A stretch of 64,000 bases of DNA from NCBI GenBank assembly GCA_934141535.1, contig CAKPCH010000001.1, positions 79,341 through 143,340 on the forward strand. The letters are read 5' to 3'. The position numbers were made by a program, and so were the translations under genes. The notes under the pieces are model-generated. The model had not been told where the DNA came from, made no database searches, and was given only the letters and a program-made list of their open reading frames with translations. This document shows positions 6,960 through 54,667 of the stretch, one piece after another (position 1 is the stretch's first letter; every line of letters starts with the position of its first letter). The DNA comes from an uncultured Bacilli bacterium. Its GTDB lineage: Bacteria; Bacillota_I; Bacilli_A; RF39; UBA660.

Positions 6960-7713
6960 AACAAAATGTTCTTTTAAATGGTTCTATAATAAATATTAAA
7001 GATGAAAATATAAAATTTTATGAAAATTGTTTAGAAAATGTTAATATTAATGGAATTGATACTAAAATTTTTAAAGGTTATCTTAATTATAAACCATTTT
7101 ATTGTCCTAATTGTGGCGTTATTAATGAATCTAGTGATGATATTATTAAATGGGATTGGAAACTTAATTGTAAAGTTATTTTACCTAAAATTTTTAATTA
7201 TAATACTATCCTTATGTTAGATAAATAAAGATTTTATTGTAAACATTGCCACTGTACTTTTATTGCTGAATCTAATGAAATTAATAAGTACTGTAATATT
7301 TCTAATAATACTAAACTTTCTATTAATCTTGATTTAATGAATAAGATTAGTGAAAAAGATATTGCTTTTAGAAACAAAGATATTGATTTATTTATTAAAA
7401 TTATTTCTTCTAAACATAATAATATTTCAGATTATATGAAAACTACTCTTAAAACTTATAATGAATTTAAACCATTTATTATTAATTCGCTTAAATTTGA
7501 ATATAACAACGGACTTATTGAAGGAACAAATAACTTAATTAAATATATTAAAAGAATTGCTTCGATTTTAAATCTTTTTATCATTTCAAAATTAGAATTT
7601 TACTTATTATTGGTATTTATAAATATGCATAATAAAAAGGAAGTCCGAAGACCTCCTATCAATCTCATTTATCATTAGTTTTTGGTTCCGCCAACACTAT
7701 TTGACAAAGAGCC
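6960..7713 (+). mobile_element. ISL3-family insertion sequence remnant. The transposase is truncated and internally deleted, the right inverted repeat is present, and the left end is missing.
   Basis: Frame-2 translation gives an ISL3 transposase N-terminal zinc finger (KPFYCPNCG ... FYCKHCHC). This is followed almost directly by the ISL3 C-terminal signature FEYNNGLIEGTNNLIKYIKR. An in-frame TAA lies at 7226-7228. The terminal inverted repeat ggctctttgtcaaatagtgttggc is the reverse complement of 7690-7713. Confidence 0.65.
6962..7678 (+). pseudogene. ISL3-family transposase pseudogene: no start codon, an in-frame stop at 7226, and the DDE catalytic domain deleted
   Basis: Only ~235 codons remain of a family normally ~430 aa. 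The zinc-finger N-terminus and the extreme C-terminus are joined with the DDE core absent. Confidence 0.6.
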
Positions 7714-8002: not shown

Positions 8003-10717
8003 CTATTTTATCAAAGATGATGAGATTGTTATAACTGGACGGACACCAGGATCGCTCGCATAGCTGACGGCGCCGCAGCTCAAGCCGCCGCTACAGTGAA
8101 CAAACCACGCGTAGCTAGAGTCATCAGCATCAGGTGTTATTGTCCAATAACCATATACTCCTGATACTGGATGTGCTGTATCTATCAAATAATCATATAG
8201 CCATGTTGATAAACCTGAAATATATGAATTATTAAATGTTTTTCCAGAGGCAGTGGCTATTTGACTAGCACTTGGAAAACTCACTTCTACTCCTTCTTTA
8301 TTAAATATTTCCTTTATATGGCCTAAATAATCTTTTCCTGTTGGAGCATTTGAACCTGTTGCTGTTATATTTTTACATGTTGTGTTATCTGTTCCTCCAT
8401 CTGTACACCAAGCTAATCTATATGGTACATATGAATCTGTAAAATTTTCTTTCATGATTAAACTTACATTATCTTCTGAATTTCCAAGTACAAAGAATGT
8501 ATTACTATAACTATCTCCTACATCGCATGTATATTCATCTCCGTAATTAAAACTTCCACTTGGTACATTACCTGTTGTTGCTTCTGTTACTGGATTACAT
8601 ATTGGAGGTGCTACTAATGATGATTTAGGCACTTCTATTACTGGACGAACTCCATAGCTAGTACTACTAACATTACTTTTATTAAATTGGCCCAGAAAAT
8701 ATACATACCATGCATAATTTGTATTTGTACCAGCAGATGAAGAAGCTGTCCAATAGCCATACGTTCCATCAATATCGCCGTTATTTAAACAACCATAAGA
8801 TGTACAAGTTTTCATTGTTCTATCATATAGCCAACCATAACTACATCCTGTTGTATTACCATATTTACATGTATCACTTTGTCTCGTAAAATTTGTATCA
8901 AAAAAGTAATAATTAATAGTATTAGTAGCTTCATTAAAAGTTGAATAACCTGTAATTTTAGCTATTTCATTTGCCGTTATAAGTCTTGCATTAAAATTAG
9001 AATAATCTACTGTATAATTTGCTTGAGATGCTTGTGATGACTGATCAACAGTATAATTTGAAGGAGTATTAGTCCCCTTCCAACCGCTTGTATCTGTTTT
9101 AAGTTGCGTTAGTAACGTACTAGGTCCTGATCCAATACTTCCAGTTGAATTCCAAGCAATTTTTGCTGTTGTATTGTGATCCAATATTAAATTAATATTA
9201 TCTCCACCATCATCGTTAAATGCATAAAACTTCATACATCCTGATTTTACTCCTGTAGCGCTCTGTGATGCAGTATAATTCGTACAAACTTTTCCAGTAT
9301 CTACATTGAAATATACTACTTCTCCATTTGTGTAGTGTTTTGGTGCCTCTTTGATTATAATATCACCATTAACTCTCGGTACAGTCAATAGTTTAGTAGT
9401 CTCATCATATAGGTAATCCGTTCCTCTTGTTAATGCCACATCTCCCATAATAACTCTAGGAACAGATAAATTTATAGTTGCTGTATATTTATTACCTTCT
9501 ACCACTTCATTGATACAATCTGTACATGTCACTCCATCATATGTTACTTTAAATATTTGCTTATAGTTAAATTCTATATTAAAACTTTGTGGATCACTAG
9601 TTACTAAACTTTCGTCTATTCCATCTTTATATTTTATTGTTATATATATTTTTTTAGTTACACCATTTGTACAGTTATCATCATCACATACTGGCATTAC
9701 CTCACCATTATTATAGCCATCTATTGTATAATCTAAAACACTGTCAGATTTGAATGAAGATTTAGGAATTGTTATTACTGGACGGATTCCATTTTCAAGG
9801 CTTACAAAGTTAGCAGTCAAGGAACCATTCGAACCCATAATTCGTGCACCATAAGTGGCATTTTCAACAGGGGTAGATGTCCAATAACCAGTTACATCTG
9901 ATACTGGATGAATTGTTCCATCTAAATAATCATATAGCCATGTTGGTAACATCTCTTCTTCGTTCCCTCCCGCAGCATATAACTGATCATATGTTGGCAA
10001 CGTTATTTGTGTCTGAGATAAATTTGTCCAAGTTAATGTATAAGCTCTTAAAGCTTTATTTGCTGTTATTGGTCCTTTAGTATTATTACCATTGTCATAA
10101 TTTGTTCCTCCTGCTGCTATATAGTCTTCTTGTGTTACCCATGCAACTTTTGATTTGTCTGTTGATGATGCTGTAACTATATTACCATCACTTCCTACAT
10201 TTGCATTTAAAATTAAGCTTACATTATCACCAGAGTTTTCTACTACAAAGAATGTTTTAGGTGTACCATCTCCTACATCACATATGTATTCATCTCCTGG
10301 ATTATAATTACCATCAGGTAAATATCCTAATGTAGGATTTGTTACTGGAGTACATATTGGAGATTGTGTAAGTGCTCCCATTTTTACATTACCCAAGTTT
10401 GTTATATCTACTTCATATTTTACAGTTGAATTCTTATTTGGTAATACTATATCTCCAAATATATTAGATACGTTATATTCTTCAGTTCTTGCTATAGCGT
10501 TATTATCTGTAGAACTTACTCTAATACCAGTTAATCTTACTGTCTTATCTATTCTTATCATAGCTATATTTTTCATAACTAAACTTGCGCTAAATGAAGC
10601 AAATCCTATGGTTAAAGTTGTTACTAAAATAAAAATAGTAATAATTAACCCTTGGGTTAATTTCTTACTATTAATATTTTTGAAATTGTTAAAACCATAA
10701 TTGTCTTTTCTTTTCAT
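8003..10717 (-). CDS. large (904 aa) secreted/surface protein with a SipW-cognate-type signal peptide, an N-terminal TasA-like beta-module, Ig-like middle modules and three DUF1566/Fib_succ_major-like lectin-type modules each ending in G(V/I)RPVI
   Basis: N-terminus ...LTQGLIITIFILVTTLTIGFASFSASLVMKN has a charged n-region, an h-region and the AAF-like FASF motif. Repeated module ends are NGIRPVITIPKSSF, YGVRPVIEVPKSSL and PGVRPVITISSSLIK. The modules contain YWTSTP...AWYV hallmarks of the DUF1566 family. It is the last gene of the tasA-sipW-DUF5305 operon. Confidence 0.8.
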   Translation of the reverse strand: MKRKDNYGFNNFKNINSKKLTQGLIITIFILVTTLTIGFASFSASLVMKNIAMIRIDKTVRLTGIRVSSTDNNAIARTEEYNVSNIFGDIVLPNKNSTVKYEVDITNLGNVKMGALTQSPICTPVTNPTLGYLPDGNYNPGDEYICDVGDGTPKTFFVVENSGDNVSLILNANVGSDGNIVTASSTDKSKVAWVTQEDYIAAGGTNYDNGNNTKGPITANKALRAYTLTWTNLSQTQITLPTYDQLYAAGGNEEEMLPTWLYDYLDGTIHPVSDVTGYWTSTPVENATYGARIMGSNGSLTANFVSLENGIRPVITIPKSSFKSDSVLDYTIDGYNNGEVMPVCDDDNCTNGVTKKIYITIKYKDGIDESLVTSDPQSFNIEFNYKQIFKVTYDGVTCTDCINEVVEGNKYTATINLSVPRVIMGDVALTRGTDYLYDETTKLLTVPRVNGDIIIKEAPKHYTNGEVVYFNVDTGKVCTNYTASQSATGVKSGCMKFYAFNDDGGDNINLILDHNTTAKIAWNSTGSIGSGPSTLLTQLKTDTSGWKGTNTPSNYTVDQSSQASQANYTVDYSNFNARLITANEIAKITGYSTFNEATNTINYYFFDTNFTRQSDTCKYGNTTGCSYGWLYDRTMKTCTSYGCLNNGDIDGTYGYWTASSSAGTNTNYAWYVYFLGQFNKSNVSSTSYGVRPVIEVPKSSLVAPPICNPVTEATTGNVPSGSFNYGDEYTCDVGDSYSNTFFVLGNSEDNVSLIMKENFTDSYVPYRLAWCTDGGTDNTTCKNITATGSNAPTGKDYLGHIKEIFNKEGVEVSFPSASQIATASGKTFNNSYISGLSTWLYDYLIDTAHPVSGVYGYWTITPDADDSSYAWFVHCSGGLSCGAVSYASDPGVRPVITISSSLIK

Positions 10718-10727
10718 ATTTTATCAC

Positions 10728-11855
10728 CTATAAATCAACGCTTTTTACATAATATATATATAATACTTTACCATCCTTTACATAAAAGCAACATTTTTCA
10801 CTATTTATTTTAACATACATAATTGGTATTTTTAAATTATCTCTAACATCAAGTAATTCTTGAAATTTAGTAATCTTATATACGTCATGCTCTTTTAAAT
10901 CAGGTATACGATTAGTTTCAACTATTGTTCTATCATAATCATTTAATAATTTATTAACATAACTATTGTATTTATCTTTTTTTGGAAGTAATACTACTAA
11001 TAGTTTTATTAAATATATGAAACTTGCTAATCCTAATAATATTAATATTATGCCAGCTACAAAGAATGGTTTATTACCTATCATAGCACTTACAGTCTTT
11101 GTAGCACTACCATTTTTATTTGTATTTGATGCATCTATATTTATATTAATTTGTCTTGTTGAAAGTGGTATTGTTAAAGTAGATGAACTTGAATTGTTAT
11201 AATCTATACCAAATGCACTTTCTTTACCTAATGTATTTGTAATTAATTTAATAATTAATTTACTATCACAACTTACACCATATGTACTTTTAAATGTATT
11301 TGCTAAGTCATTATATTTATTATAATCAATTGCTATTGTTTTATCTAATGAATATCCACTAGCACTGTTTTCTAACCCTTTAACATTATCTTCTAATACA
11401 TAATCTTTTGTATATAGTATTTTACCTGAATTCCCTTCCGGAGTAATAACAAGGCTTGCTACTATTTTATAATCATGATTAATTGTAGATGTTCTATTTA
11501 CCATAAAATTATATTTAAATGTTACATTAATATAGTCAATTAAACTTGCTATATAAGTCATATTCTCATCCAAATATGGTGCTTCATAGAAGTCATTTGG
11601 TTTTAAATAAACTTTGTAACCTGTACTACTACTTTCTTGATAATTTACATAAACGTTCTTATTTCTATCTATTGATAAATTAATAAACATTACTGAGGTA
11701 ATTATCATGACTATAGTGAGAATTAAAGAGAAAGTAATTCTTGCGTTAAAGCTAATATATCTTTCTTTTTTCTTCTTTACAATTTTTTCAGTTACTTTCA
11801 CTTCTTCGTTATTAGTTTTCTCACTTTCTTTAATTATGTTTCCCTTTTTTTCCAT
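10728..11855 (-). CDS. DUF5305-like accessory membrane protein: an N-terminal TM anchor, a ~230-aa extracytoplasmic domain and a C-proximal TM
   Basis: 375 aa. TM helices at ~38-58 and ~268-290 (FFVAGIILILLGLASFIYLIKLLVVLL). Its position immediately downstream of sipW matches the sipW/tasA-associated DUF5305 genes of Clostridia. The family name is assigned from memory, not from a search. Confidence 0.55.
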   Translation of the reverse strand: MEKKGNIIKESEKTNNEEVKVTEKIVKKKKERYISFNARITFSLILTIVMIITSVMFINLSIDRNKNVYVNYQESSSTGYKVYLKPNDFYEAPYLDENMTYIASLIDYINVTFKYNFMVNRTSTINHDYKIVASLVITPEGNSGKILYTKDYVLEDNVKGLENSASGYSLDKTIAIDYNKYNDLANTFKSTYGVSCDSKLIIKLITNTLGKESAFGIDYNNSSSSTLTIPLSTRQININIDASNTNKNGSATKTVSAMIGNKPFFVAGIILILLGLASFIYLIKLLVVLLPKKDKYNSYVNKLLNDYDRTIVETNRIPDLKEHDVYKITKFQELLDVRDNLKIPIMYVKINSEKCCFYVKDGKVLYIYYVKSVDL

Positions 11856-11870
11856 CTTAATCTCTCCTTT

Positions 11871-13001
11871 TTACAATTCGCTTAGCATTACTGTTGGATA
11901 TCCTATAAAAGGTATTTGAACATTAACTATTCCCTTTATCATATCTTCAGTTATCTTATATCCATCTTGACTTGCATTAGCATCACCTTTAGTATAGAAA
12001 TAATGTTCACCATCTATATCAAGCACCTTAACAACTCTATGAACTATTACTTTATTTTCATACTCATAAGCAACTATGTCCCCTACTTTAATTTTATCGT
12101 AGTCTTTATCAATTTTCTTAATAATAACAACTGCTCCTCTATCAAATGTAGGACTCATTGATCCACTAGCAATCGCTACTGCTGTATATTTGAAATAACC
12201 ACTTGTAAAATAAGTAAGTACAACTACAAGTCCGAATAACAACGCATAAGAAATTATATTTATTTTATTATTACTTCTTGTCATTACCTCTTCGTTTAAT
12301 ACATCTTTAAATTCTCTTAATAATATTGTAAATAATATTATAGGAACTAACAAGTCAAATATTGACTTCATATATTCACTAAAGTTTGGAACTATAGGAA
12401 GTAAATAACTATATACACCAAGTACTAATCCAAGTAATAATGATGGCTTATAACCAGCATTTAAGCATATATACGTCTTACATAAATTACGTGCTATACT
12501 TGGAAGTAAATATAACCCAACAAACACTAATATGTTATATACTGAATCAAAATCAGCATAATATATAGTATTTGTTACATCAACAGTAATCAAAAGTATA
12601 GTCGTAAAAATTATTAATAATATATTTCCTTCGCTTTTCTGTAACAATTGATATCTTAAAAACTCACTTAATATTATAACTAATACTGTAGGAAGTATAA
12701 ACGTTGTAAATGATTTAAAAGTATAATAATTGTTATTATAAGCAAATCCTGAAAAGAAACCTATTATGTAATATATAACTAATACTATAATCAAATATAT
12801 TAATATTGATTTCATTACATTTGAACTGTTTTGGTGTTTATCTTTTTCAAAATTAAAATTAATTTTAAAAATGATAAGCGCTAAAACCATAAATAAAACA
12901 ATATAATAATTGCTTAGTATATTTTTAAAGAAACTGTTAAAAAGTAAAACTAAAAACAATGTTAATTCAATTATTAATATTTTCAAATAACTTTTTTTCA
13001 T
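11871..13001 (-). CDS. sipW: ER/archaeal-type signal peptidase I (SipW family, S26B) fused in-frame to an N-terminal ~240-aa polytopic (about 6-TM) membrane domain
   Basis: C-terminal 137 aa: MTRSNNKINIISYALLFGLVVVLTYF (TM), then SGSMSPT (catalytic Ser box), VGDIVAY, VHRV (catalytic His), TKGDAN and QIPFIGY. This is collinear with B. subtilis SipW. There is no stop codon between the membrane domain and the peptidase domain across 376 codons, in a genome where stops are frequent. Confidence 0.8.
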   Translation of the reverse strand: MKKSYLKILIIELTLFLVLLFNSFFKNILSNYYIVLFMVLALIIFKINFNFEKDKHQNSSNVMKSILIYLIIVLVIYYIIGFFSGFAYNNNYYTFKSFTTFILPTVLVIILSEFLRYQLLQKSEGNILLIIFTTILLITVDVTNTIYYADFDSVYNILVFVGLYLLPSIARNLCKTYICLNAGYKPSLLLGLVLGVYSYLLPIVPNFSEYMKSIFDLLVPIILFTILLREFKDVLNEEVMTRSNNKINIISYALLFGLVVVLTYFTSGYFKYTAVAIASGSMSPTFDRGAVVIIKKIDKDYDKIKVGDIVAYEYENKVIVHRVVKVLDIDGEHYFYTKGDANASQDGYKITEDMIKGIVNVQIPFIGYPTVMLSEL

Positions 13002-13028
13002 GTTTCACCTCTTAAACAATATTTAGAC

Positions 13029-13059
13029 TAGAGATAATAGACGAATTCTATTATCTCTA
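13029..13059. promoter_or_regulatory. intercistronic perfect 12-bp stem-loop between the TasA-like gene and sipW; candidate attenuator or mRNA-stability element
   Basis: tagagataatag (13029-13040) / ctattatctcta (13048-13059) with a 7-nt loop. No clean T-run follows on the coding (minus) strand. Confidence 0.4.
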
Positions 13060-13082
13060 ACCTAATTTTAGAAATTAATTTA

Positions 13083-13742
13083 TTAGTTAGCTGGAGTATC
13101 TGAAGTATATTTTAATTCAACACTACCAAAGTCAACTTTAACGTCACCATCAACGTCAACAGCATCACTTGCATAACTAATAGTAATAACTGCTTGACCA
13201 GCACCGTCAGTTTTAACTAATTTTTGTGCTTCAGCTTGAACTTTATTTAATTCAGTTGTAGCAGTAAATGTTTGTAATGATTCAGCAGCAGGTCCAACTT
13301 TTACAGTCATAGTAATTTTATCACAAGCAGCAGCCATTAAATCACTAGATACAGATGTCTTACCTTCAGTTACAACAGCAGTACATTTAGTTGTTGCTGG
13401 TGTAAATGTTACAGTTCTTAAATAAGCATCATAAGCACCTTGATTTAAAACTGGAATAGTCATAGTAACTGAATCACCTGGTTTAGATAATTGAGCTGTA
13501 ATAGCTGCTATAGTATTTGTTCCTTCAGCACCACTAGATAGTGTTACAGAACCTTTATCAGATGGACTTACTGATCCTGCTCCAAATAAAACTTTAAAGT
13601 TTTCTGAAGTTGGAGTTACAGTTGCCTCTGATTTAATAGTTAATGTACTAGAGAAAGCTGCAAAACCGATACTTAAACCTAATACTGAGATAACTAATGC
13701 TACTAAAGCTACTGTTTTACTATTTTGTTCTTGCATAAACAT
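13083..13742 (-). CDS. TasA/camelysin-family (peptidase M73-like) secreted fibre subunit with a SipW-cognate signal peptide
   Basis: N-terminus KTVALVALVISVLGLSIGFAAFSSTLTIKS matches the SipW-cognate class with an AAF motif. The core LSKPGDSVTMTIPVLNQGAYDAYL resembles the TasA segment LKPGDKLTKDFQFENNGSLAIKEVL. 219 aa. It is the first gene of the operon with sipW. Confidence 0.8.
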   Translation of the reverse strand: MFMQEQNSKTVALVALVISVLGLSIGFAAFSSTLTIKSEATVTPTSENFKVLFGAGSVSPSDKGSVTLSSGAEGTNTIAAITAQLSKPGDSVTMTIPVLNQGAYDAYLRTVTFTPATTKCTAVVTEGKTSVSSDLMAAACDKITMTVKVGPAAESLQTFTATTELNKVQAEAQKLVKTDGAGQAVITISYASDAVDVDGDVKVDFGSVELKYTSDTPAN

Positions 13743-13833
13743 TCCTTCCTTTCTAACATAATTTGTACATACGATGGAAACCCTTCTTATGTTACATTAA
13801 AATTATATATCAGATAGAAATAAATTTCAATGT

Positions 13834-13924: not shown

Positions 13925-14893
13925 ATGAAAAGAAAGATGAAAAAAAGACCTATATTTATTTTAATTTTTATAATTATATTTATAATTGTTGTAATAAGTT
14001 TTATAGTAAGAACTATTAATTATCATAAAACTTATGACTATAAGCTTGGAAAACAAGGTTTTAATAAAGAAGAAATAGTAGAACTAAAAAAACTAAAAGA
14101 TGATACATTAAACTATTTACTTACTATTACTTATAATAAAGATATAGTAAATATAATTAAAGAAAAATATTTCTTAGAAAAAAACTTAAGTAAATATATA
14201 ACTTATTTAGAAAAAAATAAAGATAAAGATATATCTGATATAATTTCTATTGTTAATGTGGGCGCAGATAATGATTTTTATACCAATACAAAGAAAACTG
14301 ATACTAATAAAGGTATACTTATGTTAACAAATAAGTATTATGGTTTAGATGAAACATATGATGATACAACTATGAAAGAAATAAGTTCTACTTATAGTTA
14401 TGGAAGTGATCAAATGTTAGTACCAGAAGCACTTAATGCATTTATTAATATGTTTAAAGCTGCAAAAAAAGAAAATCTAACATTAATTATAAACTCCTCA
14501 TATAGAAGTTATAAAGATCAAGATGAAGTTTATAATAAATATAAAGATACTAAAGGAGAAGAATATGCAGATTCAATAGCAGCCCGTCCTGGTTATTCAG
14601 AACATCAAACAGGACTTGCCATTGATATTCAAACATATGGTTCAAGAGCCGCTACATTTGAAGAATTCGATGAATTTAAATGGTTACAAAATAATGCTCA
14701 TAAATATGGTTTTATATTAAGATATCCTAAAGATAAAGAATATTTAACAGGTTACTCATATGAGTCATGGCATTATAGATATGTTGGAATTAGTGCTGCT
14801 ACATATATTAAAGAAAATAATATAACATTTGATGAATATTATGCATATTTTATAGAAGGTAAAGAAAATGAAAAAGAAACGACTAAAAATTAA
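13925..14893 (+). CDS. membrane-anchored D-alanyl-D-alanine carboxypeptidase, VanY/peptidase M15B family (paralog 1 of 3)
   Basis: N-terminal TM (PIFILIFIIIFIIVVISFIV). C-terminal M15B motifs ARPGYSEHQTGLAIDI and SWHYRYVG. RBS aatggtgataatATG. Confidence 0.8.
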   Translation: MKRKMKKRPIFILIFIIIFIIVVISFIVRTINYHKTYDYKLGKQGFNKEEIVELKKLKDDTLNYLLTITYNKDIVNIIKEKYFLEKNLSKYITYLEKNKDKDISDIISIVNVGADNDFYTNTKKTDTNKGILMLTNKYYGLDETYDDTTMKEISSTYSYGSDQMLVPEALNAFINMFKAAKKENLTLIINSSYRSYKDQDEVYNKYKDTKGEEYADSIAARPGYSEHQTGLAIDIQTYGSRAATFEEFDEFKWLQNNAHKYGFILRYPKDKEYLTGYSYESWHYRYVGISAATYIKENNITFDEYYAYFIEGKENEKETTKN

Positions 14894-16028
14894 AAAATTA
14901 ATATTATTTATACTTATAGTTTTAATAATACTTATATTATTAGTTTTATTTAATCATAAAAATAATAAAGATTTAAAATCTATTGGTTATAATGAACTAG
15001 AAATAAGTTCAATAGAAAAACTAACTAAATCAGAAATAAATGAAATAAGAAAATATAAATATAATAAAAATATAATATATATAATAGAAAGTGAAAACTA
15101 TAATCCAAATAAAATAAAATATTATTTAAAAGGAATTAATGAAAATAAAAAAATAGATTACTTAAAAATATTTAATTTAATAAATGATGATGAATTTAAA
15201 GAAAATAATTTTGATATATATTTAAATTTATTAAATAAATATGATAATTATAAAGGTATTTTAAAATATGTAAATGATTATTCTAGTAATAATATAAAGC
15301 TTGATAACACAACACTTTCATTTATAGAACAAGAATATTTTATTATAGATTACTTAGATAGATATATAAATTATTATAATGATAATAAAAATTTAGATTT
15401 TAAAGAAATAGTAACACGTGTTAATTCTAATCTAGATTATAAATTTTATGATGATTCTAAAGAAGCTGATTTATCTAAAGGAATGTATACTTTAGTAAAT
15501 AAATTCTATTATTTAGGCAAAGATTATGTACCAGATGATTTAGAAGTAATAGATGGTATATATGCAAGAGATAGTGCTAAAGCTGTTAAAGTTGCAGCTA
15601 CTACATTTAAAAAAATGGCTGATGATGCAAGGAATGAAGGCTTAACTATAAAAGTTACAACAGGATATAGAAGTTATAATTTTCAATCCACTTTATATAA
15701 TAACTATGTTAAAATAGATGGTGTAAAAGAAGCTGATACCTACTCTGCTCGACCTGGTTATTCAGAACATCAATTAGGATATTCACTAGATTTAACAAAT
15801 GCTAAAAACGTAGGATTTAGAGATTTTGATAAAACAAAAGAATATGAATGGTTAAGTAAAAATGCATATAAATATGGATTTATACAAAGATATCCTAAAG
15901 ACAAAGAATATTTAACAGGATATATGTATGAATCATGGCATTATAGATATGTTGGTGATGATATAGCAAAATATATCTATGAAAATAACTTAACATACGA
16001 AGAATATTATGCCTACTTTAAAAGATAG
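14868..16028 (+). CDS. membrane-anchored VanY/peptidase M15B family D,D-carboxypeptidase (paralog 2) with a long N/K-rich N-terminal extension
   Basis: SARPGYSEHQLGYSLDL and ESWHYRYVG motifs, and an N-terminal TM. The start overlaps the previous gene by 26 nt. Confidence 0.8.
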   Translation: MKKKRLKIKKLILFILIVLIILILLVLFNHKNNKDLKSIGYNELEISSIEKLTKSEINEIRKYKYNKNIIYIIESENYNPNKIKYYLKGINENKKIDYLKIFNLINDDEFKENNFDIYLNLLNKYDNYKGILKYVNDYSSNNIKLDNTTLSFIEQEYFIIDYLDRYINYYNDNKNLDFKEIVTRVNSNLDYKFYDDSKEADLSKGMYTLVNKFYYLGKDYVPDDLEVIDGIYARDSAKAVKVAATTFKKMADDARNEGLTIKVTTGYRSYNFQSTLYNNYVKIDGVKEADTYSARPGYSEHQLGYSLDLTNAKNVGFRDFDKTKEYEWLSKNAYKYGFIQRYPKDKEYLTGYMYESWHYRYVGDDIAKYIYENNLTYEEYYAYFKR

Positions 16029-16068
16029 TAAATGCTATCTTTTTTTCATATAATATAATGGTGATAAT

Positions 16069-16701
16069 ATGGAAAAAATAATTTATATAATATTATTATT
16101 AATATTAGAAAAAGATTTTTATACTAATATTAAAACAATAAAAAAAGTAGATTTAACTACTATAGTTAATAAAAATAATAAATTAGAAAAAAACTATGTT
16201 CCAGATAATCTAGAATACATAGATTTAAAATATTCTTGCAAAGATAAAATGCTTGTAAGTGTAGCACGTAAACAATTTGAAAAACTTGCTAAAGATGCTT
16301 CTATTGAAGGATATAATATAATAGCAGTTTCTGCTTATAGAAGTTATGATTATCAAGAAAAACTATATAATAATTATGTTCTTCTTAAAGGAAAATATAT
16401 GGCAGATGTAGCAAGTGCTAGAAGTGGACATTCAGAACATCAAACAGGCCTTGCTGTTGATGTTTCTGATATTACACTTGATTATGATAACTTTGAAAAA
16501 ACTAAAGAATTTACTTGGATGAAAAATAATGCATATAAATATGGATTTATACTAAGATACCCTAAAGCAAAATTTCATATTACAGGATTTAAATATGAGC
16601 CATGGCATTATAGATATGTTGGTAATGTTGTAGCACAAATAATACATAGTAAAAATATAACTCTAGAAGAATATGAAAAAGAGTTAAGAAATAACTCTTA
16701 A
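16069..16701 (+). CDS. VanY/peptidase M15B family D,D-carboxypeptidase (paralog 3, shortest)
   Basis: SARSGHSEHQTGLAVDV and EPWHYRYVG motifs. It uses the same aatggtgataatATG start context as paralog 1. Confidence 0.8.
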   Translation: MEKIIYIILLLILEKDFYTNIKTIKKVDLTTIVNKNNKLEKNYVPDNLEYIDLKYSCKDKMLVSVARKQFEKLAKDASIEGYNIIAVSAYRSYDYQEKLYNNYVLLKGKYMADVASARSGHSEHQTGLAVDVSDITLDYDNFEKTKEFTWMKNNAYKYGFILRYPKAKFHITGFKYEPWHYRYVGNVVAQIIHSKNITLEEYEKELRNNS

Positions 16702-44206: not shown

Positions 44207-45478
44207 TTACTTTATAACTGATTTAGATAATGTTATTACTGGACGGATACCAAATTTATTTGAAAGTCCAACGTTATAATAATCTATATTGCTATTATTA
44301 CCAACATACCATGCACCAATAGTAACTGTATGTGGAGTACTAGTCCAATATCCATCTACACCTGTTACTGAATGTAAAGCTCCAGATAAATAATCAGTTA
44401 ACCATTTTTGTTCTAAAGTTGGATAGTCTAAATAATTCTTTCCATCAGCGGTTGCTATTTGACTAGCACTTGGAAAACTCACTTCTACTCCTTCTTTATT
44501 AAATATTTCTTTTATATGCCCTAAATAATCTTTTCCTGTTGGAGCACTACTTCCTGTTGTACTTATATTTTTACAAGTTGTGTTATCATCTTCACCATCT
44601 GTACACCAGGAAAGTGTTGTTGGTATATATGAATCTGTATAGTTTTCTTTCATGATTAAACTTACTGTATCTGTATTATTTTCTAGCACAAAGAATGTAT
44701 TTGTGTAACTATCTCCTACTTGGCATGTATATTCATCTCCGTAGTTAAAACTTCCAGTAGGTACGTTTCCTGTTGTGGCAGTAGTTACTCCTGTACAGAT
44801 TGGTTCAGAAGGTAGTGTTGGCATTCCACTTAAACTTGTTGATCCATATGTTAAATAAATACTACCAAATTTTATTGTAAATGGGCCATCGGCTATTGCT
44901 GAACCACTTGTATATTCTATTGTTATTTTTACTAATTCACTATTACTTTTCTTTAATACATGATTTGTTATATTTAGAGTTGTATCAGTATAAGAAGTAC
45001 TTAATACTGTTGTTGTTACTTTTATTCCATTACATGCTGATTCTACCATTGAAGAACTAGTACCTTCTCCAGCTACACATTCTTTAAATACTGACTTACC
45101 ACTAATATTATTAAATACTACACTACTTAAATATGCATCATAACTTCCTTCATTTCTTGCATAAAATGTATACTCTACTTTTTCTCCAGGTGCAGTAAAT
45201 GAAGCACTTAAATTTTTAATTGTTGGATTACCACTATTATCTATTATTGGTGTTCCAGCTTGTGCATTCCCTGTTTTTGTTACACTTACATTAGTTGTTG
45301 AAAGTGATGTACTACTACTTGAAAATACTACTTTAAAATTTCCTGAATCTGGTGTAATTGTCGCATTACTTTTTACTGTTAGAGAACTAGAAAAAGCTGC
45401 AAAAGCTATACTTAAACCTAATACGCTTATTATAGTTATTATTAATATTAATGTTGTATTTTTTTTATTATATCCCAT
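44207..45478 (-). CDS. TasA/camelysin-like protein with a SipW-cognate signal peptide and one C-terminal DUF1566/Fib_succ_major-like module
   Basis: N-terminus TLILIITIISVLGLSIAFAAFSSSLTVKS. TasA-like core FTAPGEKVEYTFYARNEGSYDAYL. The C-terminal ~200 aa are near-identical in design to the modules of the giant paralogs (CTGVTTATTGNVPTGSFNYGDEYTC ... YWTSTP ... GIRPVITLSKSVIK). Confidence 0.75.
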   Translation of the reverse strand: MGYNKKNTTLILIITIISVLGLSIAFAAFSSSLTVKSNATITPDSGNFKVVFSSSSTSLSTTNVSVTKTGNAQAGTPIIDNSGNPTIKNLSASFTAPGEKVEYTFYARNEGSYDAYLSSVVFNNISGKSVFKECVAGEGTSSSMVESACNGIKVTTTVLSTSYTDTTLNITNHVLKKSNSELVKITIEYTSGSAIADGPFTIKFGSIYLTYGSTSLSGMPTLPSEPICTGVTTATTGNVPTGSFNYGDEYTCQVGDSYTNTFFVLENNTDTVSLIMKENYTDSYIPTTLSWCTDGEDDNTTCKNISTTGSSAPTGKDYLGHIKEIFNKEGVEVSFPSASQIATADGKNYLDYPTLEQKWLTDYLSGALHSVTGVDGYWTSTPHTVTIGAWYVGNNSNIDYYNVGLSNKFGIRPVITLSKSVIK

Positions 45479-51104: not shown

Positions 51105-52538
51105 TTAATAAATTATTTCTATTTTTGATGGAGCATTTGTAGTATTTACTGTTAATATTGTTGTATTTTGTATTTTTGATAATTTTGGTAAATCTACTAA
51201 TTCTTCTGTTCCGCTACTTCTTATAACTTTTCCAAGCTCATAATCTATATAGTCTCCATTCATTAATGGTGAATTCAAACTTACTTTATAACTGATTGGT
51301 TCTACATATGCTTCGTATGCTGTTGGGGTTGTACCTTCTTCTATTTGGAATGTAGAGAATTTTGCTATATCACTTGAAGTAAGCACTAATGTCTGACCTT
51401 TTTTTACAAAATAATCATATCCATCCTCTACAGTAAATGTTGATGATGGTTGTAATTTATCTACTGTTATATATGAAAGAAATGTAAAAGCTGTACTATC
51501 TATTTTATAAAAATATATATATTCTGGAACACTAGAACTATTCTTTAATGTCGCACTTATTACATATTGTTTACCTGGTGTTAATTTATCCGTATATACT
51601 CTTGCTTTAGATTGTGTTGATGAAAATGGATAATCTGTTGTAACTAGTTTTGATGTATTAAAGAAATCTATTTTATTTTTACCACTAAGTGTTAATGGTA
51701 TTTCGTATTTCCCTGTACTGGAATTCAAATCTCCTACTCCACTACTACTTCCATATATTCTATATCCATCTATATAACTTATACTATCATCAACTTTTAT
51801 TTCATTTGTGGTTGATGACAATACTGTTCCAGTTGGTAATGTTGGTGTTCCGCTTAAATTTGTTGAGCCATATGTTAAATATATCTTACCAAATTTTATT
51901 GTAAATGGACCATCTGCTACACTTGAGCCACTTGTATATTCTATTGTTACTTTTACTAATTCACTATTATTCTTTTTTAATACATGATTTGTTATATTTA
52001 GTGTTGTGTCTGTATATGATGTACTTAATACTGTGGTTGTTACCTTTATTCCGTTACAAGCACTTGCTACTAAAGATGATGTTGTACCAGTACCTGCTAT
52101 ACATTCTTTAAATGATGTTTTTCCTTTAATATTATCAAATACTATACTACTTAAATATGCATCGTAACTACCTACGTTTCTTGCGTAAAATGTATACTCT
52201 ATCTTTTCACCAGGTGACGTGAAAGTTGCTTTTAATCCACTTATAGATGGATTACCATCATTATTTATTGTTGGTGTTTCAGCACTCGCATTTCCAGTTT
52301 TCGTTATGCTTACACCAGTTGTTGCAAGTGATGTACTGCTACTTGAAAATACTACTTTAAACTCTCCTGAATCCGGTGTAATAGTCGCATTACTTTTTAC
52401 CGTTAAAGTACTTGAAAAAGCTGCAAATACAATAGATAGTCCAAGCACTGAAATAAGTGTTATTACAAGAGCTAAATTTATATTTCTTTTATTATAATAT
52501 CCCATAGTACTTCCTACCCTTCTTTTATATTTTACCAC
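51105..52538 (-). CDS. TasA/camelysin-like protein with a SipW-cognate signal peptide and a distinct ~260-aa C-terminal domain (no DUF1566 module)
   Basis: N-terminus NLALVITLISVLGLSIVFAAFSSTLTVKS. The TasA-like core is almost identical to the 44207-45478 paralog up to ...TIKFGKIYLTYGSTNLSG, then diverges. Confidence 0.75.
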   Translation of the reverse strand: MVKYKRRVGSTMGYYNKRNINLALVITLISVLGLSIVFAAFSSTLTVKSNATITPDSGEFKVVFSSSSTSLATTGVSITKTGNASAETPTINNDGNPSISGLKATFTSPGEKIEYTFYARNVGSYDAYLSSIVFDNIKGKTSFKECIAGTGTTSSLVASACNGIKVTTTVLSTSYTDTTLNITNHVLKKNNSELVKVTIEYTSGSSVADGPFTIKFGKIYLTYGSTNLSGTPTLPTGTVLSSTTNEIKVDDSISYIDGYRIYGSSSGVGDLNSSTGKYEIPLTLSGKNKIDFFNTSKLVTTDYPFSSTQSKARVYTDKLTPGKQYVISATLKNSSSVPEYIYFYKIDSTAFTFLSYITVDKLQPSSTFTVEDGYDYFVKKGQTLVLTSSDIAKFSTFQIEEGTTPTAYEAYVEPISYKVSLNSPLMNGDYIDYELGKVIRSSGTEELVDLPKLSKIQNTTILTVNTTNAPSKIEIIY

Positions 52539-52639: not shown

Positions 52640-54667
52640 TTAATTTAATTCTGATTTAGGAATTGTTATAACTGGACGAATGCCATCATAGTTGGCATCG
52701 ACATCTTGACTATATAATGACCCATCACCTGTCACATCATAAGCTCTCGCATAATTTCCAGTAGAATCCTCAGAATACATAGAATATGAAATGGTCCAAT
52801 AACCAAATACTTCTGATACTGGATGAGTTGCTTCCTCTAAATAATCATGTAGCCATGTTGGTAAATTTTCTAACAAATCATCATTGTCAACATCAACAGT
52901 TAAACCTAAAGCATTTGCTATCTGATCTGCTGTTGGTAATGTTATTTGAGATATATTTGTCCAAGCCGATGTATATTCTTTCAATGCATTAGTAACTGTT
53001 ATTGGTCCTTTATTAGTTCTAATATATCTATTCCAATCACTTTCTGTCCCTCCGGCAGCTATATAATCTTCCTTTGTTACCCATGAAACTGTTGATAGAT
53101 TCGTTGAAGATGATGTTACTGCTTTACCATCTATTCCTACATTTGCATTCATTATTAAACTTACATTATCTCCTGAAGTTTCTAGTACAAAAAATGTTTT
53201 TGAGTCACCATCGCCCACATCACATGTATATTCATCTCCATAAGCATAATTTCCTGTTGGAACACTACCTGTAGTTGCGGTTGTTACTGCTTTACATATA
53301 TAATTTGAACCTTCACTAATTGTGATATCCCCATTAACATTAGGTATTGTTAACAATTTAGTAGCTTCATCATATGTATAATCTATATCTTTTGTTAATA
53401 TTATATCTCCCATAACAATACTTGGAGTACTTGAATTTATAGTTGCTGTATATGTATTACCTTCTATCGATTCTGTATTACAATTAGTACAAGTTATTCC
53501 ATCGTATGTTACTTTAAATATTTGTTTGTAATCAAATCCTATATTAAAAGTTTGTGGTTCACTAGTTACTAAACTGTCACTTATTCCATCTTTATATTTT
53601 ATTGTTACATATATCTTTTTAGTTGCACCATTTGTGCAGTTGTCACCATCACATACTGGTATTGCTTCACCATTACTATAACCATCTATTGTGTAATTTA
53701 AACTAGTATCTGCTCCAAATGCTGATTTAGATATTTTTATTACTGGACGAACACCGTAACTTCTAGAATCACTGACGGAGGGGGTGCCGCCGTTCAAATA
53801 GCCGTTATAGTGAACAATCCACGCGCTGCGAGAGAAATTACCAGGCGTTATTGTCCAATAGCCACTTACGCCTGTTACTGGATGGGTTGTTTTATCTAAA
53901 TAATCATATAGCCATGTTGGAAAACTAGAACTTTTATTTCCTGCTGCTTTATATATTTGAGCTTTTGCAGGAAAACTTACTTCTACTCCAGATTTATTAA
54001 ATATACTTTTTATATGTCCTAAATAATCTTTACCATCAGGAGCATTACTTCCAGTTGCGGTTATATTTTTACAAGTTTTATGACTGGAACCACCATCTGT
54101 ACACCAAGCTGTTGTTTTAGGTACATAAGAATCTGTATAGTTTTCTTTCATAATTAAACTTACTGTATCTGTATTATTTTCTAGCACAAAGAATGTATTT
54201 GTATAACTATCTCCTACTTTGCATTTATATTCATCTCCATAATTAAAACTTCCAGTTGGTACATTGCCTGTTGTAGCTGTAGTCACTGCTGTACAGATTG
54301 AAGAGTGTGTAACTGGAGGAAGTGCTCCCATTTTTACATTACCCAAATTTGTTATATCTACTTCATATTTTACATATGAATCTTTACTTGGTAATACTAC
54401 ATCTCCAAATATATTAGATACGTTATATTCTTCAGTTCTTGATATAGCACCTCCATTTGTAGAATTTACTTTTATACCAGTTAATCTTACTGTTTTATCT
54501 ACTCTTATCATAGCTATATTTTTCATAACTAAGTTTGAACTAAATGAAGCAAATCCTATAGTTAAACTTGTTACTAATATAGCACATATTACTATTAAAT
54601 ATTTTGAGATCTTTTTTCTCTTTATAAAACTAAAATTATTAAATCCATAATTATTTTTATGCCTCAT
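52640..54667 (-). CDS. large (675 aa) SipW-cognate-signal-peptide surface protein with two DUF1566-like modules and Ig-like middle modules
   Basis: N-terminus YLIVICAILVTSLTIGFASFSSNLVMKN. The N-terminal module is shared with the other giant paralogs (VDKTVRLTGIKVNST...VKYEVDITNLGNVKMGAL). Module ends YGVRPVIKISKSAF and DGIRPVITIPKSELN. Confidence 0.8.
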   Translation of the reverse strand: MRHKNNYGFNNFSFIKRKKISKYLIVICAILVTSLTIGFASFSSNLVMKNIAMIRVDKTVRLTGIKVNSTNGGAISRTEEYNVSNIFGDVVLPSKDSYVKYEVDITNLGNVKMGALPPVTHSSICTAVTTATTGNVPTGSFNYGDEYKCKVGDSYTNTFFVLENNTDTVSLIMKENYTDSYVPKTTAWCTDGGSSHKTCKNITATGSNAPDGKDYLGHIKSIFNKSGVEVSFPAKAQIYKAAGNKSSSFPTWLYDYLDKTTHPVTGVSGYWTITPGNFSRSAWIVHYNGYLNGGTPSVSDSRSYGVRPVIKISKSAFGADTSLNYTIDGYSNGEAIPVCDGDNCTNGATKKIYVTIKYKDGISDSLVTSEPQTFNIGFDYKQIFKVTYDGITCTNCNTESIEGNTYTATINSSTPSIVMGDIILTKDIDYTYDEATKLLTIPNVNGDITISEGSNYICKAVTTATTGSVPTGNYAYGDEYTCDVGDGDSKTFFVLETSGDNVSLIMNANVGIDGKAVTSSSTNLSTVSWVTKEDYIAAGGTESDWNRYIRTNKGPITVTNALKEYTSAWTNISQITLPTADQIANALGLTVDVDNDDLLENLPTWLHDYLEEATHPVSEVFGYWTISYSMYSEDSTGNYARAYDVTGDGSLYSQDVDANYDGIRPVITIPKSELN

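Follow-up and report, generated by a model that had tools for sequence, protein, structure and literature searches.

We analysed a 64,000-nucleotide stretch of DNA from an uncultured Bacilli bacterium (contig CAKPCH010000001.1, positions 79,341 to 143,340; hereafter the window, G+C = 24.3%), in which a single gene on the minus strand (11871..13001) encodes a 376-residue fusion protein. An eight-helix transmembrane (TM) domain with a predicted CPBP-like fold is followed by an anchor helix and an endoplasmic reticulum (ER)/archaeal-type signal peptidase I domain, an architecture supported by the open reading frame (ORF), full-length homologues and a match to the family TIGR02228. We consider it reasonably probable that the protein is a dedicated peptidase for TasA/AbpX-like fibre proteins, equipped with a built-in scaffold of the CAAX-protease fold.

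An intact and conserved fusion

The ORF starts with ATG and runs for 376 codons without an internal stop or frameshift, and a Shine-Dalgarno-like AAGAGGTG lies 5 nt 5' of the start codon. An earlier note on this DNA had described the open frame as a SipW-like peptidase fused to an N-terminal polytopic domain, and had argued that so long a frame would rarely stay open by chance. The comparative data bear this out. Homologues align end to end, the two parts form a conserved joint chain, and the mean column entropy of the N-terminal domain (1.42 bits) is near that of the peptidase domain (1.20 bits), with 2.15 bits for the linker between them.

A homologue search covering 5.8 billion proteins gave 1,208 matches; the best 120 are nearly all about 375 residues long and align over 100% of the query with 45–69% identity. 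Some full-length homologues are named merely 'signal peptidase I [Bacilli bacterium]'. A profile of the N-terminal domain, scanned against one genome per species, matched at least 105 genomes and returned 79 loci, from gut and rumen metagenome-assembled genomes labelled Bacilli, Mycoplasma sp. CAG:877, Ca. Faecisoma, Erysipelotrichaceae or Tenericutes. The fusion protein had a phmmer match in every one of the 79 loci, and a motif scan recovered the fusion ORF in 61 of them. Two of these ORFs are interrupted by contig ends; the other 59 are complete, about 375 residues long, and contain both halves, so that the orthologue check proposed earlier found the same fusion in 59 of 59 cases. The SGSM and HR motifs are present in all 59, and GDxN in all but two. 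Among 1.84 billion cluster representatives (50% identity), the N-terminal profile matched 1,054 at E ≤ 1e-3, and the listed ones are again nearly all about 375 residues long.

These data refute the idea of an artefact or of two separate genes, in which a sequencing or assembly error created the fusion, or only the internal Met240 (12284) is used and the upstream frame is untranslated; we give it next to no probability. The internal ATG is directly preceded by GAGG, and a few short cluster representatives consist of the N-terminal domain only. However, the GAGG is merely ~3 nt from the ATG and corresponds to Glu-Val codons, and residue 240 is Met in just 1 of the 41 aligned homologues, the column being mainly D or E. 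Judged from this alignment, Met240 cannot be the start codon for the family, and the earlier suggestion that it might prove to be the only start falls away. Of the five short candidates (P0134, P0135, P0146, P0163 and P0177), the first four are fragments: a run of N in the scaffold splits P0134 from its peptidase part, P0135 and P0146 both stop within the anchor helix, and the next called ORF after P0163 starts within the SGSM-P active-site motif. No genuine stand-alone N-terminal domain was found among the short representatives inspected. A frameshift or assembly artefact is ruled out by end-to-end conservation across homologues, loci and cluster representatives, including full-length conservation in hundreds of independent assemblies, and comparison of the sequences confirms that the fusion is genuine.

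The nearest species-level genome match to the N-terminal domain is just 52–53% identical, and a 99%-identical protein (P0001) occurs in metagenome assemblies; the species collection thus seems to lack any close relative of the window's own species.

Domain layout and topology

The N-terminal domain (residues 1–239; 12285..13001, minus strand, as are the following parts) contains eight TM helices at residues 3–24, 32–48, 59–84, 95–123, 127–148, 154–182, 184–200 and 209–239, according to hydropathy and AlphaFold2 (AF2). A variable cytoplasmic linker (~240–246) and a ninth TM helix (~247–266), which serves as the peptidase anchor, occupy 12204..12284, as indicated by hydropathy, AF2 and high column entropy. 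The beta-rich catalytic domain comes after this helix (residues 267–376; 11874..12203) and has no C-terminal TM helix. Hydropathy and two AF2 models thus give eight helices in residues 1–239, instead of the roughly six counted earlier, and nine overall with the anchor at 245–266.

A hand count on the hydropathy positions placed 16 Lys/Arg residues in predicted cytoplasmic loops and 3 in predicted external loops. This bias fits an N-terminus inside and a peptidase outside. We therefore propose a topology in which the N-terminus is cytoplasmic, eight helices lead to the cytoplasmic linker, and the ninth helix runs outward to a catalytic domain on the external side. The anchor directly precedes the catalytic domain, whose outside location is predicted by hydropathy, AF2 and the positive-inside count.

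An ER/archaeal-type signal peptidase domain

Residues 247–374 match the NCBIfam model TIGR02228 (archaeal/ER-type signal peptidase I; MEROPS S26B) with 94.6 bits, against a cut-off of 51.85, and the match stops at model position 134 of 158. The SipW equivalog model NF046067 gave 69.2 bits against a cut-off of 190, with a match ending at position 136 of 189; in both models the match gives out before the C-terminal helix. SipW has about 190 residues, with one N-terminal and one C-terminal TM helix. The window protein terminates just past ...IPFIGYPTVMLSEL, 9 residues beyond the IPFIGYP motif, and the SipW-type C-terminal helix is absent. The earlier reading of residues 240–376 as a complete SipW-like unit therefore holds for the peptidase domain and not for its completeness, and a strict identification as SipW fails on both the score and the missing helix.

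The catalytic-domain residues (all on the minus strand) are Ser281 in SGSM (codon 12159-12161), His321 in VHR (12039-12041), D340 and N342 in GDAN, and D346. All five are invariant in the 41 homologues, which points to a catalytic Ser and His, and not the bacterial Lys. The closest solved sequences are human SEC11A/C (E 1e-13), and the closest structures are SipA, SEC11 and LexA-type folds. The sequence marks the C-terminal part as a signal peptidase I of the ER/archaeal type (Ser281/His321) and not as a SipW equivalog.

A predicted fibre operon with a common signal motif

The gene directly upstream of the peptidase in all cases encodes, in the window, a 219-residue protein (13083..13742, minus strand), the predicted major fibre subunit, with the signal ...GLSIGFA↓AFSSTLTIKSEATV (arrows mark the junction between signal and mature protein). 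The peptidase gene is followed by one for a 375-residue DUF5305 protein (10728..11855, minus strand; PF17231, E 3.9e-18), in which hydropathy indicates two TM helices (40–58 and 265–283). We regard it as a putative accessory subunit of the peptidase, a role proposed for DUF5305 proteins in 10.64898/2026.01.04.697558 and PMC11821415. The next gene (8003..10717, minus strand) encodes a 904-residue secreted protein with a GFA↓SFS signal, the predicted tip or adhesin subunit on the basis of its signal, family matches and synteny. Matches of its repeated modules to DUF6273 (E 6e-11) and a weak one to Lcl_C suggest a lectin-like tip used in adhesion.

This core order of one to six copies of the ~220-residue subunit gene, the fused peptidase and DUF5305, all co-directional, was found in nearly all 79 loci. 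Where the sequence of a locus reaches that far, the peptidase gene is nearly always followed by the DUF5305 gene, and a large secreted adhesin-like gene comes after the latter in about half of the loci. The copy number of the subunit gene differs among genomes, and one locus (L007, 3033-7902) has six in tandem. Four loci (L006, L019, L030 and L071) hold a second fused-peptidase match, which in L006 and L019 has its own subunit and DUF5305 genes.

The subunit-like proteins, 93 in number, share the motif ...G-L-S-x-G26-F-A-A-F-S-x-x-L-x-I-x-S-S-A-x-V-x-P, in which G26 is invariant and F27, A28, A29, F30, S31, L34 and I36 are nearly so. Following the -3/-1 rule, cleavage would occur after GFA, and in the 219-residue subunit it is predicted to expose AFSSTLTIKSEATV as a donor-strand-like N-terminus. 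Five window proteins have a GFA↓(A/S)FS-type signal, three of them encoded outside the operon. In TasA, the junction between signal and mature protein reads ...TWA↓AFND (A↓AFNDIK). The mature end of the subunit, AFSxTLxI..., resembles both TasA and AbpX (YA↓QWSETLSLSATIS; supplement of 10.64898/2026.01.04.697558). Compared by hhalign with an alignment of AbpX proteins, the alignment of the subunit family gave a probability of 90% (E 1.7e-6), the signal peptide accounting for some of the matched region. A BLASTP comparison of the 219-residue protein with AbpX gave nothing significant, and searches of PDB and Pfam with the subunit family returned weak Ig-like matches only. From these similarities, the protein is predicted to be a TasA/AbpX-like fibre subunit. 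Together with the alternating pattern of the N-terminal motif, they lend indirect support to a possible jelly-roll/beta-sandwich core and donor-strand assembly, the marks of the TasA superfamily. A paper on a TANB77 gut 'pilin' concerns a Tad/type IV pilus and is unrelated.

In the B. subtilis tapA-sipW-tasA operon, SipW is likewise an ER/archaeal Ser/His peptidase encoded with its fibre substrate, and the substrate signals are similar. That operon includes TapA, which serves TasA filaments as a chaperone/assembly factor (PMC10151520). In the window locus we noticed no homologue of TapA, and DUF5305 is found instead. The earlier idea that the N-terminal extension is a counterpart of TapA found no link here, the accessory candidate of the operon being the separate DUF5305 protein. 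A parallel for this pairing is provided by the haloarchaeal tat-fimbriae, in which experiments showed that the fibre subunit TafA cannot be processed without its dedicated peptidase TafD, an enzyme accompanied by the DUF5305 protein TafG (PMC11821415). TafD differs in having 4 TM helices and a C-terminal Ig-like domain, without an N-terminal eight-TM domain, and its substrates travel via the Tat pathway (PMC11821415).

Fold of the N-terminal membrane domain

For residues 1–239, searches up to E ≤ 10 found no Pfam or NCBIfam family. The AF2 model of this domain is confident (pLDDT 88, pTM 0.84), has the eight-TM Rce1-type fold that characterises CPBP members, and finds its closest structural matches in SpdC, APH-1 and TMEM147, the best being the inactive SpdC. 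SpdC and Rce1 are members of the CAAX-protease/CPBP family, and an origin from the same family has been proposed for APH-1 (Pei et al. 2011, as cited in PMC12260438). No canonical CPBP gene that might bridge the N-terminal domain and CPBP was found in the window or the loci. An exosortase/archaeosortase or rhomboid-like domain was also considered and rejected: the domain has no suitable invariant Cys or His, and none of the listed fold matches is of these kinds by its description.

Active CAAX proteases have three motifs, EExxxR, FxxxH and HxxxD/N (PMC12260438). Helix 4 of the window protein carries (S/K)-E113-F-L-R116-Y, in which E113 is invariant and R116 nearly so; the spacing is one residue shorter than in EExxxR, and the motif was placed without superposition. 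In the 41-homologue alignment, helices 5 and 7 have no conserved His at the positions of motif 2 (FxxxH) or motif 3 (HxxxN/D). The domain has no invariant His, and the sole nearly invariant one, H56, lies in the TM2-TM3 loop. The invariant residues are N22, E52, G81, Y92, P104, E113 (codon 12663-12665), F160, P167, N172, G183, P186, Y199 and P205. On the evidence of the model, the N-terminal domain appears to be a fold relative of the CAAX proteases and the CPBP family, at best a degenerate member, and its pattern is that of the non-catalytic relatives SpdC, SpbR and APH-1, from which we infer that it too is non-catalytic.

Relation to the polytopic peptidases of AbpX loci

A preprint on AbpX of Pyrodictium abyssi (January 2026, Sleutel et al., 10.64898/2026.01.04.697558) reports that the dedicated signal peptidase I (SPase I) of AbpX loci 'possess[es] ten TM helices' and that DUF5305 stands beside it. 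The preprint makes no mention of CAAX, Rce1, CPBP or APH-1, and leaves the extra helices without a proposed role (10.64898/2026.01.04.697558). As in the window protein, a long polytopic N-terminus precedes an ER-type peptidase domain, and the gene adjoins one for a ~215-residue fibre subunit and, in most loci, DUF5305 too.

The P. abyssi peptidase has 380 residues, with ~9 hydrophobic segments before the catalytic domain, a layout like that of the window protein. Its catalytic domain is 40% identical to the window-protein family; neither its N-terminal domain nor that of P0131 gave a significant alignment with the N-terminal domain of the family. The N-terminal domain of P0130, a more distant polytopic peptidase reached via the P. 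abyssi catalytic domain, did align (hhalign 93%, E 3e-7, 175 columns), and its locus has the composition subunit/adhesin/SPase/DUF5305, in which the core gene order of the 79 loci recurs. Differences were seen in the number of helices: the window protein has nine TM helices without a C-terminal one, whereas P0130 and P0131 possess a C-terminal helix and P. abyssi, by hydropathy, seemingly does not. The hosts also differ, a low-GC gut lineage in our case and both archaea and bacteria for the AbpX-locus enzymes, and the window subunits have Ser at mature position 4 in place of the acidic residue of AbpX-type subunits. Most likely, the window protein is a nine-TM form within this loosely defined polytopic class, one that lacks the C-terminal helix.

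The P. abyssi peptidase also led to P0129 (501 aa) and P0132 (460 aa), in which an N-terminal peptidase domain is followed by a long extension with hydrophobic segments; these may be SPase-DUF5305 fusions of the kind known in the literature. An 812-residue cluster representative, P0204, was considered as a triple fusion with DUF5305 and rejected. Its truncated peptidase part continues into metallophosphatase-like sequence (GNHEFDWG...), and it is probably a chimeric assembly or a pseudogene.

A proposed scaffold for the peptidase and its alternatives

A partnership of these two kinds of proteins in trans has been described in S. aureus. There, the degenerate CAAX-protease homologue SpbR binds the signal peptidase SpsB in a 1:1 complex, validated by cross-linking, in which TM5/TM7 of SpbR meet the TM helix of SpsB (PMC12260438). 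Both this pair and the window protein combine a degenerate membrane protein of the CAAX-protease fold with a single-pass type I signal peptidase, and in SpdC-SagB (PDB 6u0o) a degenerate CAAX-fold protein likewise holds a single-pass extracellular hydrolase. SpbR and SpsB are separate proteins, whereas the window case is one chain; SpsB is a housekeeping enzyme of the bacterial Ser/Lys (P-type) class, whereas the window peptidase is of the ER/archaeal Ser/His type and dedicated to an operon. In the eukaryotic signal peptidase complex (SEC11A/C, PDB 7p2p/7p2q), the accessory helices are supplied by the separate, unrelated SPCS1-3 and not by a fused CPBP-like domain. When two proteins are fused, this argues strongly that they work jointly. 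By analogy, the window fusion is most likely a one-protein version of the SpbR-SpsB complex. No CAAX-protease/signal-peptidase fusion was described in the literature searched.

In the mechanism that we favour, the anchor helix of the peptidase would be packed against the scaffold in the same chain, much as SpbR holds SpsB and SpdC holds SagB in trans, and the two helices of the DUF5305 protein would probably pack on the scaffold too. Such packing would fix the active site at the membrane surface, the scaffold standing in for the missing SipW-type C-terminal helix. The assembly would confer specificity for, or control over, the signal ...G-L-S-x-G-F-A↓A-F-S..., and could thereby tune its recognition or timing. 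A cut after GFA would free the N-terminus AFSxTLxIxSSAxV, which is donor-strand-like, and the freed segments would let the subunits polymerise into fibres ending in the large adhesins. The earlier proposal that the extension serves as a docking or partner-recruiting module is in part sustained, in that each of the matched folds, SpdC, APH-1 and TMEM147, acts as a scaffold gripping a partner enzyme by its single TM helix, and SpbR binds SpsB (PMC12260438); AF2 places the anchor helix, on which the packing depends, with low confidence.

Several observations weigh against this interpretation. The N-terminal domain does not match Pfam PF02517 (CPBP) at E ≤ 10, and its profile found no match among PDB sequences; SpbR, in contrast, is recognised as CAAX-like by a hidden Markov model. 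Without a tie to CPBP at the sequence level, the fold assignment rests on predicted structure. Motifs 2 and 3 were placed by helix order and conservation, without superposition. AF2 confidence is low for the anchor helix at 245–266 (block means 49–61), making its packing on the scaffold uncertain, and this helix is poorly conserved (column entropy 2.07), unlike a tight, specific interface. SpbR inhibits its partner (PMC12260438) and does not help it. In addition, invariant or nearly invariant polar residues are predicted to face the cytoplasm, namely E113, R116, K122 and S123 together with E52, D54, H56, E124, N172, Y184 and K185. A purely passive scaffold would hardly require so conserved a cluster, which could form part of a site for binding or catalysis.

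The inhibition of SpsB bears on a second view, in which the CPBP-like domain is a built-in regulator that inhibits the peptidase until DUF5305 or the growing fibre is present, coupling cleavage to polymerisation. The sole characterised pair of a CAAX homologue and a signal peptidase is an inhibitory one (PMC12260438), DUF5305 comes after the peptidase in nearly all loci, and early exposure of the donor strand would plausibly be harmful. Nevertheless, an inhibitor permanently fused to the only dedicated peptidase would be less economical than a positioning scaffold, and the present evidence does not separate inhibition from activation. We consider such a regulator rather unlikely.

The polar cluster could instead belong to a second protease in the same chain, the N-terminal domain being an active, non-canonical glutamate-type intramembrane protease that cuts from the cytoplasmic side. 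It might remove the cleaved signal peptide, acting as an in-built signal-peptide peptidase, or shorten the long n-region. E113 and R116 lie on helix 4, the helix of Rce1's motif 1 (EExxxR); ExxR or ExxxR occurs as well in P0130 (LEFIRL), P. abyssi (REMVRS) and P0131 (GELLSR), of which P0130 alone was aligned; and E52, D54, H56, E124, N172, Y184 and K185 fall in predicted cytoplasm-facing segments. Yet the His residues on helices 5 and 7, which are among the motifs of active CAAX proteases (PMC12260438), are not conserved, and the best structural match is the inactive SpdC. Moreover, SpbR keeps the E and R (HELYMR), is non-catalytic, and tolerates mutation of these residues (PMC12260438). Two active proteases in one chain are, in our view, decidedly unlikely.

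A bolder variant would make the eight-TM domain a handler of the signal peptide. A cytoplasm-facing cavity lined by the seven residues just named, with E113 and R116, would bind or hydrolyse the n- and h-region of the GFA↓AFS signal while the peptidase cuts outside. Together with DUF5305, the protein would then form a minimal prokaryotic signal peptidase complex plus signal-peptide peptidase that gates cleavage to polymerisation. This, too, seems unlikely to us, and a scaffold that positions the peptidase is the reading we retain.

Two elements of this picture are already known: one sentence of the AbpX preprint mentions the architecture, and the pairing of such a scaffold with a peptidase has been seen in trans. 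Apparently new are the assignment of the fold, the use of the fusion as evidence for that partnership, and the wide distribution in gut lineages together with a defined signal motif; a CAAX-fold assignment for polytopic signal peptidases was not found in the literature searched. The fusion suggests that the SpbR-SpsB partnership, recently seen in a single species, is one case of a broader and more ancient principle, by which the CAAX fold holds single-pass enzymes by their membrane helix. For the signal peptidases beside AbpX-like fibre genes, whose extra helices had lacked an explanation, it also proposes a fold and a role that can be tested. The compact four-gene fibre system with its clear signal motif occurs widely among uncultured gut bacteria of low GC content, which lack cultured models; the N-terminal domain is found in at least 105 species genomes and ~1,050 protein clusters. 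Fibres of this kind with lectin-like tips likely mediate attachment in the gut.

Regulatory sites, further substrates and neighbouring genes

Between the subunit and peptidase genes, a terminator-like scan found a 19-bp near-perfect hairpin with G-U pairs (13023..13065, minus strand; RNA fold -22.8 kcal/mol, z -4.6). It has merely a weak T-run, and is possibly an intra-operon attenuator that sets the subunit-to-enzyme ratio, or an RNA stabiliser. The best sigma-70-like promoter match (11/12) lies 5' of the subunit gene (13802..13830, minus strand); it is a consensus match, and promoter-like sites are barely enriched relative to shuffles. A terminator-like hairpin with a T-run 3' of the 904-residue gene (7638..7657, minus strand) likely marks the end of the operon.

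Three further predicted substrates, identified by the signal motif, are encoded on the minus strand away from the operon: a 423-residue protein (44207..45478) with the signal LSIAFA↓AFSSSL, a 477-residue protein (51105..52538) with LSIVFA↓AFSSTL, and a 675-residue protein (52640..54667) with the adhesin-class signal LTIGFA↓SFSSNL. Judged from translations only, their genes are scattered among DNA polymerase I- and helicase/nuclease-like genes. The first ~210 residues of the 423- and 477-residue proteins resemble the 219-residue subunit, and their C-termini differ. The large secreted proteins at 8003-10717, 44207-45478 and 52640-54667 have repeated C-terminal modules that end in ...GYWT(S/I)TP...YG(V/I)RPVI..(S/P)KS.

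Beside the fibre operon, and divergent from it, three tandem paralogues of 322, 386 and 210 residues (13925-16701, plus strand) share the motifs SYRSY...SEHQTGLA(I/V)D...WHYRYVG; they resemble, and may be, VanY/M15B-type D-Ala-D-Ala carboxypeptidases.

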